Shown in pieces: positions 1 through 5,455 of a stretch of DNA of 5,455 bases. The DNA is taken from positions 1-5,455 of the IMG/VR virus record IMGVR_UViG_3300010283_000096; one strand, 5' to 3'. Below the pieces are notes generated by a model, which did not search any database, was not told the origin of the DNA, and saw only the letters and a program-made list of their open reading frames with translations. Position 1 is the first letter of the stretch. Each line of letters starts with the position of its first letter. This DNA is from a virus. Lineage: Duplodnaviria; Heunggongvirae; Uroviricota; Caudoviricetes. A program made the position numbers and the translations under genes.

Positions 1-81
1 CAGGCGTGGTACATGGATATGATGTGCGAAGCGCGTGGCGCGGCGGATCTGTATACGCAATCGGCTTTGCAAAGGGGATGA
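1..81 (+). CDS. 3' end of an upstream gene (partial, N-terminus outside window); product not identifiable
   Basis: Frame 1 is open from base 1 to a TGA at 79-81 (translation ...QAWYMDMMCEARGAADLYTQSALQRG*). The other two + frames are not consistent with a gene ending here. The next gene starts 3 nt downstream in a coupled arrangement. No recognisable motif in the 26 visible residues. Confidence 0.4.
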   Translation, partial: QAWYMDMMCEARGAADLYTQSALQRG

Positions 82-84
82 GCA

Positions 85-426
85 ATGAGGGGGATTATTT
101 TTCTGTTAGCTGTCTTTTCTGCGTGCAGCGCGTGGGCGGATGGCTTCACGGTTAAATGCGGTGGCTACACTATGGTTGCAAACCAGGGCGAGTTATCGAC
201 AATCAACGGTGAAAGAGTTACCTCTCAAAAAATCACCGAACTGGGTACCAATGGTTTGAAAGTAGACATGGGGCTTATGCCAGCCAAAGACGGTAACAAC
301 TACGGCTTTGAATACATTCGTCGCCCTGGTACCGAAACGCGATTCCTGAATGTGCAACTGCTGCAGAACAGCATGGATGCGCCGAAAATCATCGGTTCCT
401 TTCCATGCAAAAAGATTGTTGATTAA
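85..426 (+). CDS. Small secreted protein or putative lipoprotein (113 aa), unknown function
   Basis: ATG at 85 is preceded by a Shine-Dalgarno-like AAGGGGA (72-78). The N-terminus MRGIIFLLAVFSACSAWADG is a typical signal peptide (positive residue, hydrophobic core). It has two possible processing sites: an AXA signal peptidase I site (AWA|DG) and a weak lipobox-like FSAC. The mature part is hydrophilic with no further hydrophobic helix. GC is similar to the tail genes (about 60% in a sampled block). Confidence 0.7.
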   Translation: MRGIIFLLAVFSACSAWADGFTVKCGGYTMVANQGELSTINGERVTSQKITELGTNGLKVDMGLMPAKDGNNYGFEYIRRPGTETRFLNVQLLQNSMDAPKIIGSFPCKKIVD

Positions 427-443
427 TCACTCGTAATTATAAT
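416..443 (+). promoter_or_regulatory. Putative sigma70-type promoter for the 480..719 gene (-35 TTGTTG 416-421, 16-nt spacer, -10 TATAAT 438-443)
   Basis: A perfect TATAAT hexamer at 438-443 with a TTGTTG -35-like hexamer 16 nt upstream, overlapping the stop codon of the preceding gene. The predicted transcription start near 450 leaves a ~30 nt leader containing AAGGA (464-468) before the ATG at 480. Sequence-only prediction. Confidence 0.35.
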
Positions 444-479
444 GTGATACTTCTACTTTCACGATAAGGAATTTGTCGC

Positions 480-719
480 ATGTTCGGATTTGATAAATTA
501 ATAACTCCAAAAATCATCAACGTTCTGTATGGCATCACAATGTTACTTCTGGTTGTTGCCGCCATTATAACGTTTGTTAATGGGAAGGCTGCTGGCGCTT
601 TAGTGCTTTTGTTATGTGCTGTATTTTGCCGAATATTCTTTGAGTGCATCATGGTTTCATTTAAAAACAATGAGTATCTTCGCCGAATAGCTGAAGCGTT
701 AGAAGCAAACAAGCAGTAA
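480..719 (+). CDS. Small two-helix inner-membrane protein (79 aa), DUF4282-like; moron-type accessory gene
   Basis: Two hydrophobic helices (INVLYGITMLLLVVAAIITFV and ALVLLLCAVFCRIFFECIMVSF) are followed by a charged C-terminal tail (KNNEYLRRIAEALEANKQ). The N-terminal FDKLITPKIINVLYGI matches my recollection of the DUF4282 small membrane protein family (from memory, not searched). GC is lower than neighbours (about 32% in a sampled block). The gene is flanked by a promoter-like signal and a strong terminator. Confidence 0.65.
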   Translation: MFGFDKLITPKIINVLYGITMLLLVVAAIITFVNGKAAGALVLLLCAVFCRIFFECIMVSFKNNEYLRRIAEALEANKQ

Positions 720-735
720 TGAAACTTCAATAATG

Positions 736-759
736 AACCCGCCACCCGGCGGGTTTTTT
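736..759 (+). terminator. Rho-independent terminator (stem CCCGCC/GGCGGG, loop ACCC, followed by TTTTTT)
   Basis: CCCGCC (738-743) pairs perfectly with GGCGGG (748-753) around a 4-nt loop, extended by two A-T pairs, and is followed immediately by a six-T run (754-759). It lies 17 nt after the stop codon of the 480..719 gene. Confidence 0.8.
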
Positions 760-778
760 GCTTTCTGGAGCCTACCAA

Positions 779-1531
779 ATGGCAGTATCTGACCAGACCC
801 GCAGCGGCGACCTTGCCGAAACATTCAAATCTGAACGGGAAACAACAAAGAATCAGATCCGTGTCGCCTTGCCTGGCATTATTCAGTCATTCGATCCTGA
901 TGCGGTGACGGCGGTTGTGCAGCCTGCTATCCGTTCGGTTGAAAAGGATAATGACGGCAACCGCATTACCAAAAATTACCCGTTGCTGGTGGATGTGCCA
1001 GTGGTATTCCCGCGCGGCGGAGGATGCACGCTAACGTTCCCGGTTAAAGCCGGTGATGAATGTTTGGTGATTTTTGCCGATCGTTGTATTGATTTCTGGT
1101 GGCAGAGCGGCGGGATACAGGAGCCGGTTGATGACAGAATGCATGATTTATCGGATGCGTTTTGTATTGTCGGTCCCCAGTCGCAGGCGAGGAAGATTAG
1201 CGGTATTAATACCAGTGCCACACAGTTGCGTAGTGACGACGGCAGCACCTATTTTGAGCTTAATCCTGATACCAGGAAAATTAAAATTGTCGCTCCGGGG
1301 GGGCTTGATGTGGTTGCCCCCCTGGCTGATTTTTCTGAGAAAGTAACCATTCATGGCCTGTTAACCTGGATGGGTGGCATGGTGGGGTCTGTTGTTTCTG
1401 GTGTGGCTTCAAAAATCACTGGTGCTGTTGAGTTCTTGGGGAGCGTGAAGGCTAACGGCAAGCCAATCGATGATACGCACACTCATGGTGGTGTTCAGCG
1501 CGGTGGAAGCAATACCGACGGAGTAAACTGA
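779..1531 (+). CDS. Baseplate central spike/hub protein, gpV-like (P2 gpV / phi92 gp138 class), about 250 aa
   Basis: The N-terminal half (RVALPGIIQSFDPD...VDVPVVFPRGGGCTLTFPVKAGDECLVIFADRCIDFWWQSG) has the character of the gpV/gp5 OB-fold domain. The C-terminus carries a Gly-rich stretch and a His-x-His apex motif (DDTHTHGGVQRGGSNTDG), comparable to the P2 gpV C-terminus as I recall it. The ATG at 779 with GGAG (765-768) about 10 nt upstream is preferred over the TTG at 758 given by the ORF track, which sits inside the terminator T-run. The stop overlaps the next start (TGATG). Confidence 0.8.
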   Translation: MAVSDQTRSGDLAETFKSERETTKNQIRVALPGIIQSFDPDAVTAVVQPAIRSVEKDNDGNRITKNYPLLVDVPVVFPRGGGCTLTFPVKAGDECLVIFADRCIDFWWQSGGIQEPVDDRMHDLSDAFCIVGPQSQARKISGINTSATQLRSDDGSTYFELNPDTRKIKIVAPGGLDVVAPLADFSEKVTIHGLLTWMGGMVGSVVSGVASKITGAVEFLGSVKANGKPIDDTHTHGGVQRGGSNTDGVN

Positions 1532-1884
1532 TGCGATACAGACGTGAAGACGCCGATGGCGATTACACCTTTGGCAGCGGTGATGACACCTGGCTGATTA
1601 ACTCACCGGAGGCCGTGGCACAGGCGGTAAAAACGCGATTCGAATTGTGGTATGGGCAATGGTTTCTCGACACCACCGAGGGGACTCCGTGGATCCAGTC
1701 CGTACTCGGTAAGCAGAAGCCGGAAACCTACAACCTGGCGATCCGTAAGCGCATCCTCGAAACGCGGGGCGTTAAATCAATCCTCTCTTTCAATACGACG
1801 GTGGATACCACGACCCGACGTGTCAGGTTTTCCGCTGAAATCGACACTCTTTATGGAATAACGACTGTTACATCGGAGGCGTAA
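1531..1884 (+). CDS. Small baseplate-associated protein (117 aa), positional equivalent of P2 gpW / Mu gp46 / gp25-like wedge subunit; family not confirmed
   Basis: Coding is well supported: GGAG lies 8 nt upstream, and both ends are coupled by overlapping stop/start codons (TGATG at 1529-1533, TAATG at 1882-1886). The size and position between a gpV-like and a Baseplate J gene are typical of gp25/W-like proteins. I do not recognise canonical GPW motifs in the sequence, so the functional call is positional. Confidence 0.6.
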   Translation: MRYRREDADGDYTFGSGDDTWLINSPEAVAQAVKTRFELWYGQWFLDTTEGTPWIQSVLGKQKPETYNLAIRKRILETRGVKSILSFNTTVDTTTRRVRFSAEIDTLYGITTVTSEA

Positions 1885-3083
1885 TGACTCTGAACCTTGA
1901 TTCTCTCGGTTTATCTGCAAAGGTAACCGCGGAGGGGATCAGTGCGCCTGATTATCAGACGATACTCAGCACCCTGATTAGCTATTTTCAGCAGATTTAT
2001 GGTAGTGATGCCTACCTCGAACCGGACAGTAAAGACGGTCAGATGGTGGCTCTGATGGCGCTGGCGATTCATGATGCCAATAATACGGCGATAACTGTCT
2101 ACAACTGTTTTTCACCGGCAACCGGCTATGGGGCTGCACTGACCAGTAACGTGAAAATAAATGGTATTTCACGTAAAGGCGCGACGAACTCTACGGTTGA
2201 TTTGCTTCTTACAGGAACTGCCGGAACAACCATCATTAATGGCAGCGTGAAAGACAGTAATAATGTGATATGGCGTTTGCCTGCTTCAGTGGTGGTCGGC
2301 GTGGATGGTACAGTGATGGTGACCGCAAAATGTTCCGTCAGTGGTGCAGTGGCGGCGCTGGCTGGAACTATCACTGAAATTAATACGCCAACCCGTGGCT
2401 GGGTTTCGGTAACCAATCCTGCTGCAGCTACTGTAGGCACTCCGGCAGAAACTGATGCGGAGTTACGTATCCGCCAGTCGCAAAGTGTTGCGTTGCCATC
2501 AATAACCCCATTTGAAGCACTGGATGGTGCTGTTTCTAATGTTACCGGGGTAACCCGCCACAAACTCTATGAAAACGATACTGGTTCGGAGGATGGTAAC
2601 GGGTTACCGCCACACTCTGTTGCTGTAATTGTGGATGGCGGTGATGTGACGGATATTGCTCAGGCTATCAGAGGGAATAAAGGCCAGGGGACAGCCACTC
2701 ACGGTACAACATCCGTTACGGTTCCGGATAAATACGGCAATCCCCATGTAATCAAATTCTCGCGTTCCAGTGATGTGCCTGTTTATGCCCGGATTAAATT
2801 AAAAGTTTTTACGGGTTATACCTCACAGATAGGGCAGCAGATCCAGCAGGCTATTTCCGACTATATCAATAGTCTGATGATTGGTGATTCGGTCCTTTTA
2901 AGTCGCATTTACTCACCGGCGAATCTTGGCGTGGTGAGTGGCGGAAATGCACGCTATTACGATATTCAGGAACTGACGATTGGTAAATCCCCGGGGGCTT
3001 TGTCGTCATCAAACATTGATATCAGATATAACGAATCTGCGTCCTGTGCCCCGGAAAATATCGTTATAACGGTGGAGTCATGA
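1884..3083 (+). CDS. Baseplate wedge protein, Baseplate J family (P2 gpJ / Mu gp47 / T4 gp6-like), 399 aa
   Basis: Size, position after the gpV-like and small baseplate genes, and overall sequence character match Baseplate J-family proteins. The start is coupled to the upstream gene (GGAGG 1876-1880, TAATG overlap) and the 3' end overlaps the next gene (ATGA at 3080-3083). E. coli e14 jayE is a remembered analogue. Confidence 0.8.
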   Translation: MTLNLDSLGLSAKVTAEGISAPDYQTILSTLISYFQQIYGSDAYLEPDSKDGQMVALMALAIHDANNTAITVYNCFSPATGYGAALTSNVKINGISRKGATNSTVDLLLTGTAGTTIINGSVKDSNNVIWRLPASVVVGVDGTVMVTAKCSVSGAVAALAGTITEINTPTRGWVSVTNPAAATVGTPAETDAELRIRQSQSVALPSITPFEALDGAVSNVTGVTRHKLYENDTGSEDGNGLPPHSVAVIVDGGDVTDIAQAIRGNKGQGTATHGTTSVTVPDKYGNPHVIKFSRSSDVPVYARIKLKVFTGYTSQIGQQIQQAISDYINSLMIGDSVLLSRIYSPANLGVVSGGNARYYDIQELTIGKSPGALSSSNIDIRYNESASCAPENIVITVES

Positions 3084-3760
3084 GCAAATACACCGAACTA
3101 ATCACGAACTATCACGCCACCAAACCTAAATTTCTTGCACATGCTGATCTGATGACCAGGCCGCTTATTGATGTTGCGGCTGCCACCAGAGGGCTGATTA
3201 CTGCATTTGATATTGACTCTGCGGTTGGTGTGCAACTTGACATTCTGGGATTGTGGATCGGACGTAGCCGTGTTGTCAGCCAGCCTATCTCAGGTGTCTA
3301 TTTCAGCTGGGATACCGACGGGCTTGGATATGATCAAGGTGTATGGCAGGGGCCATACGATCCTGATTCCGGATACATGTACCTCAGCGATGAAACTTAT
3401 CGTGTCATCCTTAAAGCGAAGATTGCGATTAATAACTGGGACGGACGGAATGATTCGCTTCCAGCAATTCTTGACGCTGCAACAGCAGGATCAGGGCTGC
3501 GAATGCAGATAGTCGATAACCAGGACATGACGATATCGGTCTGGGTCTTTCCTGATACTGATATTTCAGATGTATCGCGTGAGTTAATTGCGGCAATTAA
3601 ACAGGGGTATCTAACAGTAAAAGCCGCCGGGGTATGGGCGGGGGGCATTGAAACACCTTCGGTGGAAACTCCATCGGAAGGCTCTAAATTTTTTGGTTTT
3701 GATATGGATAACGAATTCATCAGTTGTTTTGATGTAGGGGCATGGGGAGTATTACTCTGA
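3080..3760 (+). CDS. Baseplate wedge / tail-fiber attachment protein, gpI-like (P2 gpI / Mu gp48 position; possibly DUF2313/YmfQ-like), 226 aa
   Basis: The ORF overlaps the Baseplate J gene by 4 nt (ATGA) and sits immediately upstream of the tail fiber gene. This is the conserved position of gpI-type proteins that follow Baseplate J in P2/Mu-type baseplates. Family membership is inferred from synteny and size, not from a recognised motif. Confidence 0.65.
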
Positions 3761-4464
3761 TGGCGAAAAATGACTTTAAAGCGTTTGCAACTGATCGAAA
3801 TGCCAATGTTATGTCGCAGGAGGAATGGGAAGCGTTGCCTGCGCTTATATCCGGATTTACAGCAGGGAAAGCATCCAGTGCGCAAGTCAATAAGGTTATT
3901 CGGCAGGCCAGCTTTATTGCTGCAGCTCTGGCCCAGTTTGTAAGTGATAAAACGCAACGGGATGTGCTTGATAATGGTGATCTGCCCGGTTTTGTTGAAT
4001 TGCTGGGATCGGGGTTTGCTGTTGAATACCTGAGCCGCAAGAATCCGTTTGGCGATATCAAATCGGATGGCACGGTGAAAACGGCTCTCGAAAACCTTGG
4101 TTTGGGAGAAGCGGCAAAACGGAATGTGGGGACAGGGGAAAATCAGATCCCCGATATGAGTTCTTTCGCTTCGTTGAGCGGTGAATCGGGTTACCAGCGT
4201 CTCCCAAGTGGGAGGCTTATTGTCTGGGGACGTGCGATGGTTTCCTCATCTTCAAATACGATTACGCTTATTGCTTCTTTTGACAATACAAATTATCGCG
4301 TTATTGTATCCGATACCGGATCTGGCTGTATTCCGTACGGTGCATCACCGTTAAGTGGTTCGACATTCAAACTGACCAGAGCTGGTCGTTCCTATAATAG
4401 CGATGGAACGTTACAAACAATCTCTGGTCCATCTGCTGTTAATTACATCGCAATAGGTAATTAA
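3760..4464 (+). CDS. Short tail fiber / receptor-binding protein (about 235 aa)
   Basis: It is immediately followed by a Tfa-type chaperone gene and preceded by baseplate wedge genes. The C-terminal half is Ser/Gly/Thr/Asn-rich ([42 protein letters not shown]...), typical of fiber distal domains. The ATG at 3760 (GGGGAG at 3744-3749, 10 nt upstream; overlaps the upstream stop as TGATG) is preferred over the in-frame ATG at 3742, which lies inside the previous gene. Confidence 0.75.
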
Positions 4465-4465
4465 T

Positions 4466-4867
4466 ATGTTTTATTCTAAGAGTGCCAACGGTTTTTTCGA
4501 TTCTTTATCTGCTCTTCCCGATGATTCATTAGAAATATCCGATGAGAAATATGCTGAAATGATCGAGGGTATCGAGGCAGGAAAAGTTTTATCTTCAGAC
4601 CATGAAGGCTATCCAGTTTTATCAGATCTTAAGTTGACAAAGGAACAGCAAATCAGTGAGGTAATGATTGTTAAAAATGGCAAAATTGCAGATGCTATGT
4701 CAGAAATTAGCGTATGGCAAACAGAGTTACAATTGGGGATCATAAGCGATAACGACAAAGTCAGTCTGATAAACTGGCTTTTGTACATTAAAGAACTGCA
4801 AGCCGTTGACACTTCAACGTCTCCTGACGTTATATGGCCTATGCCTCCGATAGTTCAGGACAGATGA
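4466..4867 (+). CDS. Tail fiber assembly chaperone, Tfa family (lambda Tfa / P2 gpG / Mu gpU class), 133 aa
   Basis: The C-terminal motif SLINWLLYIKELQAVDTSTSPDVIWPMPP closely resembles the conserved Tfa C-terminus (lambda Tfa ends ...[29 protein letters not shown] as I recall it). The gene starts 1 nt after the fiber stop codon. Its GC (about 37% in a sampled block) is lower than the baseplate genes, consistent with a swappable host-range cassette. Confidence 0.85.
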   Translation: MFYSKSANGFFDSLSALPDDSLEISDEKYAEMIEGIEAGKVLSSDHEGYPVLSDLKLTKEQQISEVMIVKNGKIADAMSEISVWQTELQLGIISDNDKVSLINWLLYIKELQAVDTSTSPDVIWPMPPIVQDR

Positions 4868-4873
4868 TATCCG

Positions 4874-4905
4874 ATGCACTGGAACAATAGATACATCCAG
4901 TGCAT
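4874..4905. repeat. Perfect 10-bp inverted repeat (ATGCACTGGA / TCCAGTGCAT) with a 12-nt spacer, between convergent genes; possible terminator hairpin or protein-binding palindrome
   Basis: Arm 1 (4874-4883, ATGCACTGGA) and arm 2 (4896-4905, TCCAGTGCAT) are exact reverse complements. The repeat lies 7 nt after the Tfa stop and about 45 nt from the stop of the convergent minus-strand gene. There is no clean T-run on either side, so it is not a canonical intrinsic terminator. Confidence 0.5.
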
Positions 4906-4948
4906 ATAATATTAACTGTTCAGTAATTAATACAGATAATCTTTAACT

Positions 4949-5455
4949 TTAAATATGTGCGTACATTTTTATTTTTTTGTAAATTGGTATGGTGATATAA
5001 TATGAAGCCATAAAGCAAATCGCGGTAAGCATTATTACCTGGATTCCATTCGCTGGCGCTAGTTTTATACCAAACAAACTACCTGCTTCGGTAATTAATA
5101 ACTTTATTGTTTGTTCTGTGCCACATAGAACTAGCGTATTTCTACCTAATTCATAAAAAGGTTTAAATACAAGTAATCGAGACACAAAAATAGACGAGAT
5201 AATTAATGAGAATGTTATAGTAATATTAATCACAGATAATATATATTTGTTGCTTGAAATAGCATAAATATCCTTAACCCCAAACATATATAGATATGAT
5301 GAAACCAAAACACTAATTGTGATTGCTAGTAAAAATCCAACACCATTCATTATAAATGACTTGGAACTTTGCAGGATATAACTAGATAAAAATTTTCCTA
5401 ATGAATAATACAGGAGATATACAAGGGCGCTGTCAACGTTAAAAAAATAAGCAGG
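4949..5455 (-). CDS. AT-rich gene for a polytopic integral membrane protein (C-terminal 169 codons visible; N-terminus beyond the window edge), unknown function
   Basis: The minus-strand ORF stops at 4949-4951. Its reading frame remains open upstream of the ATG at 5350 through to the window end at 5455 (no stop codon when I translate 5351-5455 in frame), so the gene most likely starts outside the window. The protein is very hydrophobic with at least three predicted helices (GFLLAITISVLVSSYLYMF, ILSVINITITFSLIISSIFV, IQVIMLTAICFMASYYITIPIY) and is rich in I/L/F/Y/K/N. Local GC is about 25%, against about 55% in the tail genes. Confidence 0.65.
   Translation of the reverse strand, partial: PAYFFNVDSALVYLLYYSLGKFLSSYILQSSKSFIMNGVGFLLAITISVLVSSYLYMFGVKDIYAISSNKYILSVINITITFSLIISSIFVSRLLVFKPFYELGRNTLVLCGTEQTIKLLITEAGSLFGIKLAPANGIQVIMLTAICFMASYYITIPIYKKIKMYAHI

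Follow-up and report, generated by a model that had tools for sequence, protein, structure and literature searches.

A probable central baseplate spike of the phi92 gp138 family, with a C-terminal His-x-His apex motif, in a temperate enterobacterial myovirus

Central spikes that end in a His-x-His (HxH) motif are an already known family, structurally characterized since 2011-2012 and represented in Pfam by models for both of their parts. In phage P2, H197 and H199 of the spike protein gpV form an octahedral Fe cage, according to work from the Leiman laboratory (10.1101/2023.02.25.529910). The gp138 subfamily has been known since the 2012 structure of the phi92 protein (PDB 3PQH/3PQI; Browning et al. 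2012, as cited in PMC13450770), and a 2026 cryo-EM study describes an iron ion at the gp138 apex coordinated by three HxH motifs (PMC13450770). Spike gp5 of T4 is described as being without HxH and as carrying a separate PAAR tip instead (10.1101/2023.02.25.529910); this separate tip protein, gp5.4, is reported to be required on deep-rough lipopolysaccharide (LPS) mutants. The P2 spike is reported to translocate to the periplasm. In laboratory infection with P2, deletion of the Apex or replacement of the cage by Phe reportedly leaves infectivity unchanged, while an unfolded (AA) tip halves it, the only variant described as so affected. The P2 cage is accordingly proposed to act through the sharpness and stiffness of the tip, perhaps on hosts with other LPS types; AlphaFold predictions reportedly did not respond to mutations of this cage. 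Because the P2 Apex is dispensable in the laboratory, the term 'membrane-piercing apex', which the initial annotation of the locus described here had used, is best read as naming a tip that acts mechanically, with no claim that its function is essential.

The locus lies in a 5,455-nucleotide stretch of viral DNA (positions 1 to 5,455 of IMG/VR record IMGVR_UViG_3300010283_000096; hereafter the window), in which the plus-strand gene at 779-1531 very probably encodes the 250-residue central baseplate spike, of the phi92 gp138 family, of a temperate enterobacterial myovirus (prophage), with an iron-caged Apex expected. The reading frame terminates at TGA 1529-1531 and is opened at TTG 758 in the program-made listing of open reading frames. 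The true start is most likely ATG 779, because a strong intrinsic terminator (9-bp stem with six G-C pairs, followed by a T-run) occupies 735-756, a GGAG stands at 766-769 ahead of the ATG, and homologues in RefSeq and GenBank are 250 residues long. The histidines of the motif are therefore numbered H234 and H236. Direct reading of the codons bears out the THTH that had been noticed at 1475-1486 (ACG CAC ACT CAT, followed by GGVQRGGSNTDGVN* up to the stop); the C-terminus reads ...DDTHTHGGVQRGGSNTDGVN, and the full tail of the frame ...KANGKPIDDTHTHGGVQRGGSNTDGVN*. The two motif histidines are among only four in the whole protein. The Gly-rich segment said to precede the motif is likewise present, with 21% Gly over the C-terminal 61 residues (190-250) vs 10.8% in the whole protein. 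The span originally given to the feature, 1470-1531, is correct at its end and trivially off at its start, since 1470 falls one base into the codon of D231.

The N-terminal part of the protein identifies its family. Residues 31-132 (869-1174, plus strand) form a domain of OB-fold type that matches PF18352, the Pfam model for the N-terminal domain of spikes of the phi92 gp138 family, over model positions 1-98 of 98 (E 1.5e-44; 150.4 bits vs a cut-off of 26.1), and phi92 gp138 itself matches this domain through its residues 20-102 (pairwise BLASTP, E 3e-09). This is the predicted hub-docking part, by which, on analogy with phi92, the spike trimer should attach to the hub. It is followed by a presumed intertwined triple β-helix (about residues 145-231; 1211-1471, plus strand) that ends in the Gly-rich stretch 190-231 and with which residues 94-201 of P2 gpV align in BLASTP; the β-helical parts of SN gp41 and E217 gp43 align with the protein up to residue 199. 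A sequence search of the PDB matched nine central-spike entries with E values down to 3e-13 (4ru3, 8eon, 9b45, 9ndy, 9zd7, 7yfz, 9cuy, 3pqi and 21vq), which comprise SN gp41, E217 gp43, Pa193 gp44, Bas63 gp021, 9zd7 gp86, Pam3 gp20, the PhiTE spike and two entries of phi92 gp138. Alignments to gp138 and 9zd7 gp86 are nearly full-length (for 3pqi_A, query residues 32-245 against chain residues 28-238, E 1.4e-4); those to SN, E217 and Pa193 end at about query residue 199. The protein thus belongs, on its sequence, to the phi92 gp138 family, and a homotrimer with an intertwined β-helix is predicted from the solved homologues.

Structural modeling points in the same direction. A monomeric AlphaFold2 model has a mean pLDDT of 62.8, with values of 70-84 in the N-terminal domain and 47-56 across the last 20-30 residues, and it falls below 50 at residues 192-210 and 245-250; weak confidence in the C-terminal third is expected of a monomer model, because the protein would be an obligate intertwined trimer. 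When this model was compared with the PDB by Foldseek, the best 21 matches were without exception central spikes, from contractile tails or R-pyocins, among them phi92 gp138, P2 gpV, Mu gp45 and the R2 pyocin spike, with VgrG structures as distant matches. The domain order from OB-fold through β-helix to Apex is supported by homology to solved spikes, and the proposed identity as a membrane-piercing spike is upheld by the PF18352 match, the solved central spikes found by sequence and the Foldseek result. The PHROGs collection returned no family for the spike, though neighboring genes were identified there. The NCBIfam model for P2 gpV, TIGR01644 (phage_P2_V), scored 33 bits vs a cut-off of 46.75, over the C-terminal half only (residues 123-248), and membership in the P2 gpV subfamily is ruled out by that score. 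The suggestion that the protein is a subfamily distinct from P2 gpV therefore holds as to the distinction, but not as to novelty, since the subfamily is the already described one of phi92 gp138.

The Apex itself is recognized by a Pfam model of its own and by alignment to spikes of known structure. Residues 232-248 of 250 (DTHTHGGVQRGGSNTDG; 1472-1522, plus strand) match PF18946, the 'GpV Apex motif', at 22.7 bits vs a gathering cut-off of 20.8 (E 1e-4), a small margin of 1.9 bits for a model of only 23 positions. Within it lies the histidine-cage motif H234-T235-H236 (1478-1486, plus strand). When the P2 gpV and phi92 gp138 sequences, taken from their genome records, were aligned with the protein by MAFFT, the HxH motifs of all three coincided: T233-H234-T235-H236 pairs with T196-H197-K198-H199 of P2 gpV and with the THTH of gp138. 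BLASTP independently pairs THTHGG here with THKHPG of P2 gpV, and the claim of a His-x-His apex comparable to that of P2 is thus supported by two alignment methods as well as by the Pfam match, with H234 and H236 equivalent to H197 and H199. The residue that follows the motif is Gly here and in OBP gp146 and PhiTE, and Pro in P2 and phi92; the apexes of PhiTE (SHTHGGVSRGGDNTNP) and OBP gp146 (HRHGGVQSGGSKTD) match the Apex of the protein. Three HxH copies in the trimer are expected, as in P2 and phi92, to coordinate one Fe octahedrally.

It is conceivable that the HxH is instead a chance or lineage-specific sequence that forms no metal cage, in a C-terminus that is simply a disordered tail, as the low pLDDT over the last residues and the marginal score of a short Apex model might suggest. 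This is extremely unlikely. An HxH within the last 20 residues arose in only 0.35% of 200,000 shuffles of the protein, and low confidence in a monomer model is just what an obligate intertwined trimer would give. No substitution of H234 or H236 occurs among 47 close homologues (65-92% identity), in contrast to position 235 and most positions after it, which vary; both histidines are also invariant in an alignment of 30 diverse C-termini. A profile built from those 30 C-termini retrieved 17 PDB sequences, of which 16 are phage central spikes or tail tips (from OBP gp146, gp86, PhiTE, 36za gp51, Mu gp45, P2 gpV, phi92 gp138, E217, Pa193 and SN), and among these are the Fe-binding apexes solved for P2, Mu and phi92; the C-termini of E217, Pa193 and SN are weak matches that reach only profile position 48 of 62. 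The C-terminal HxH is thus a real feature rather than a product of chance, and the iron-caged Apex stands as the expected reading; its tip geometry, iron binding and piercing role would be those described for solved homologues and in the literature.

The motif is also positionally fixed across the wider family. A search of 1.84 billion representative proteins yielded 8,381 relatives at E values up to 0.001, and among the best 150 of these (39-98% identical, 50% clustering) 112 carry HxH within the last 40 residues. Of 101 full-length representatives, 99 have the start of the motif 13-23 residues before the C-terminus, most commonly at 17, as it is here; the distance is the same in relatives of 40-70% identity, which further argues against a lineage-specific sequence without a cage. 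The consensus among the full-length representatives is HxH-x-G-V-Q-x-G-x-G-x-T-G. A C-terminal HxH is absent from 38 of the 150 family representatives (P0159, P0165, P0193, P0245, P0268 and P0269 among them), and several of the 38 are fragments, either truncated or frameshifted. One distinct group among those without HxH ends in a conserved '...G(A/T)SGTF.....G..(I/V)TVQDGI(I/V)TNI', which looks, from these sequences, like an alternative apex-less C-terminal module placed on the same N-terminal spike domain.

Between the β-helix and the Apex, the Gly-rich stretch of residues 190-231 (GLLTWMGGMVGSVVSGVASKITGAVEFLG...) is mildly hydrophobic and conserved in the enterobacterial branch of the family; the 47 aligned close homologues all share W197, G200, M201, G203 and G208. 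It aligns with the tapering end of the β-helix in P2 gpV. The usual Kyte-Doolittle threshold for a transmembrane segment over 19 residues is 1.6. The maximum reached by the stretch over 19 residues is 1.28, and a transmembrane reading is rejected on that score. A further idea is that, just below a standard Apex, a hydrophobic neck replaces the usual polar end of the β-helix in the enterobacterial branch, non-canonical and possibly membrane-active; AlphaFold2 did not model the stretch with confidence as a monomer. This idea is a long shot, and if it is correct, the spike tip would here take a form not yet represented among solved structures.

The genes around the spike make up a baseplate module. 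Positions 1-81 (plus strand) hold the 3' end of a gp27-like baseplate hub gene, whose 353-aa counterpart in a syntenic E. coli prophage ends at window position 81; its matches are the Pam3 hub gp19 (2.6e-12), phi92 gp137 and the baseplate hub family phrog_196, and on analogy with these systems it would be the partner for spike docking. Downstream, all on the plus strand, are a gp25/gpW-like sheath initiator (117 aa; 1531-1884; Pam3 gp21, 4.8e-12; phrog_120), a Baseplate_J/gp47-like baseplate wedge protein (399 aa; 1884-3083; PF04865, 8.5e-16; phrog_6, 2.3e-75), a second baseplate wedge protein (DUF2612/Phage_Wedge1; 226 aa; 3080-3760; PF11041, 8.2e-46; solved counterparts 7kh1 gp17 and 9zd7 gp89), a short tail fiber (240 aa; 3742-4464; PF21882; phrog_11303 and phrog_1396) and a tail fiber assembly chaperone (133 aa; 4466-4867; PF02413 Caudo_TAP, 8.1e-21; phrog_188). 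The sheath initiator also matches those of the XM1-type tail (7kh1), Bas63, PhiTE and phi92 (gp139), and an identical gene in contig L005 carries PF10934 (Sheath_initiator). Several genes overlap, with a TGATG junction between spike and sheath initiator (1529-1533), an ATGA junction between the two wedge genes (3080-3083) and 19 shared nucleotides between the second wedge and fiber genes (3742-3760); such overlaps would fit translational coupling along the module.

This neighborhood bears on whether the protein might be a tail fiber or tailspike in which an HxH cage merely keeps three chains in register, a possibility raised by the occurrence of such cages in phage fibers and tailspikes as well (10.1101/2023.02.25.529910). 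Its probability verges on the negligible. The N-terminal half is a hub-binding domain of gp138 type, and the gene sits between hub and sheath initiator, with two small cargo ORFs intercalated after the hub. A separate fiber gene with its chaperone is present downstream. The matches by sequence and by fold are to central spikes, with one weak exception, the 17th match of the C-terminal profile, which is a baseplate receptor-binding protein (E 0.7).

The assignment to a contractile machine rather than a siphovirus tail, which had been proposed from the spike motif, agrees with the gene content: the sheath initiator is the very next gene, and the syntenic prophages carry a tail sheath. Upstream of the corresponding position, syntenic prophages and contigs encode a neck terminator, sheath, tube, assembly chaperone, tape measure, tube initiator/Dit-like protein, plug and hub, and their sheath protein matches 7kh1 (4.5e-41) and the Pam3 sheath (1e-23). 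The order plug-hub-spike-sheath initiator-wedge is that of phi92, in which plug to initiator correspond to gp136 to gp139. On the baseplate genes of the window, together with the sheath, tube, plug and hub genes of the syntenic prophages, the tail is judged contractile. A tailocin or a decayed prophage, the spike of which would kill target cells or do nothing, is highly unlikely, even though only tail genes are present in the window, Foldseek also matched the R2 pyocin spike and remnants of prophages are frequent in E. coli. In syntenic loci, terminase, portal, head and lysis genes adjoin the tail module, and four isolated phages bearing the myovirus name vB_EcoM (vB_EcoM-606R2, 611R5, 683R1 and 689R2) are 97% identical to the window over 736-4111; the identity of the motif is unaffected either way.

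The interval between hub and spike, inside the late tail operon, contains two small ORFs (85-426 and 480-719) in addition to the intrinsic terminator already described, and looks like a variable cargo ('moron') slot. The first ORF (113 aa) matches phrog_3443, a family of unknown function, and its N-terminus reads as hydrophobic and signal-peptide-like; the second (79 aa) is a DUF4282 membrane protein. Neither the first nor the second gave a PADLOC match. Contigs L005-L008 all retain the 113-aa ORF or a counterpart of 115 aa, but they differ in what separates it from the spike gene: the 79-aa DUF4282 ORF in L005, ORFs of 243 and 142 aa in L006 and L007, and ORFs of 257 and 126 aa in L008. Phages vB_EcoM-606R2 and vB_EcoM-689R2 match the window only from 736 onward.

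Exchange of sequence is also apparent toward the other end of the window. The tail fiber has a conserved N-terminus, but beyond about 4111-4170 it is no longer similar to any of the phages and prophages of E. coli in the collections; its gp53-like C-terminal domain and the chaperone gene (about 4111-4867) constitute a swapped host-range cassette. The cassette has no close match in 5,426 complete E. coli genomes, and an exact look-up did not find the tail-fiber protein on public record. Different cassettes occupy this place in related loci, and some of these (L006, L007) include a resolvase and a duplicate that looks invertible. From about 4800 the DNA is AT-rich (GC 0.30-0.35), and a minus-strand ORF runs over 4949-5455, listed as 133 aa but with its frame open to the window end. 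An identical metagenomic scaffold, L005, encodes there a 331-aa Acyl_transf_3 membrane protein, followed by a GNAT acetyltransferase gene and an integrase-type Arm-DNA-binding fragment. The 168 residues that fall inside the window show 100% identity to the C-terminal half of this membrane protein; searched alone, the fragment gave no match in Pfam, PADLOC, phage or plasmid searches. The gene is probably lysogenic-conversion cargo, O-antigen acetylase-like, at the prophage end.

The spike is common in public records, under several names. The window DNA matches 2,099 of 5,426 complete E. coli genomes, with coverage never above 76% in any of them, and the exact 250-aa spike protein occurs in 52 blocks of public assemblies. 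RefSeq names the 97-98% identical E. coli genes (97.6% identical DNA) as encoding a membrane-puncturing spike protein family member. GenBank phage records name the protein 'hypothetical protein'. Many homologue records in NCBI and UniRef are mislabeled 'translation initiation factor IF-2', for example a 1,753-member Salmonella cluster (P0002), and this label is a propagated annotation error. Beyond correct annotation the significance of the motif here is small: it marks the module as the center of a contractile baseplate and pinpoints the membrane-attacking tip. The practical use is that homologues labeled IF-2 or hypothetical protein can safely be renamed.

In the proposed structure, three chains would form a single needle of three parts. 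The N-terminal OB-fold domains (about residues 26-132) would be seated on the trimeric hub encoded just upstream, the intertwined β-helix (about 145-231) would taper via the Gly-rich stretch, and the last ~19 residues would form a conical Apex. H234 and H236 from each chain would build a six-histidine octahedral cage round one buried iron ion; this cage would hold the ends of the three chains in register and maintain a folded, narrow, stiff tip. On contraction of the sheath, the tube would force the tip by mechanical action across the outer membrane and into the periplasm, after which the spike would leave the end of the tube and open a passage for the tape measure protein and the DNA.

Among described systems, phi92 gp138 is similar over its whole length, with the PF18352 domain, the same OB-fold/β-helix/Apex layout, a size of 245 vs 250 aa, a C-terminal HTHTH that aligns with the THTH here, and a gene placed between those for the hub and the sheath initiator. 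It differs in sequence (about 26% identity, with pairwise BLASTP significant over the N-terminal domain only) and at its end, where the HxH is followed by Pro and a 2-residue insertion and the C-terminal tail is longer. The phages differ too, phi92 being lytic and of 148 kb and that of the window temperate and of the ~40-kb class. P2 gpV (PDB 3QR7/3QR8/3AQJ), the archetype of the Fe-loaded Apex, shares with the protein the GpV Apex motif and the exact register of its cage histidines, and its residues 160-195 align with the Gly-rich end of the β-helix; however, its N-terminal domain is of another family, it is 211 rather than 250 aa long, and its motif is followed by PG rather than GG. [quoted passage not shown] T4 gp5 with gp5.4, and VgrG with PAAR in type VI secretion systems, likewise serve contractile injection systems as the tip that attacks the membrane. 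A spike of this PAAR-capped type is ruled out here by the presence of the HxH and by the lack of any match to PAAR families in Pfam among the nine window proteins scanned. In T4 gp5 and VgrG the spike is without HxH and the PAAR tip is a separate protein, whereas here the tip is fused to the spike.
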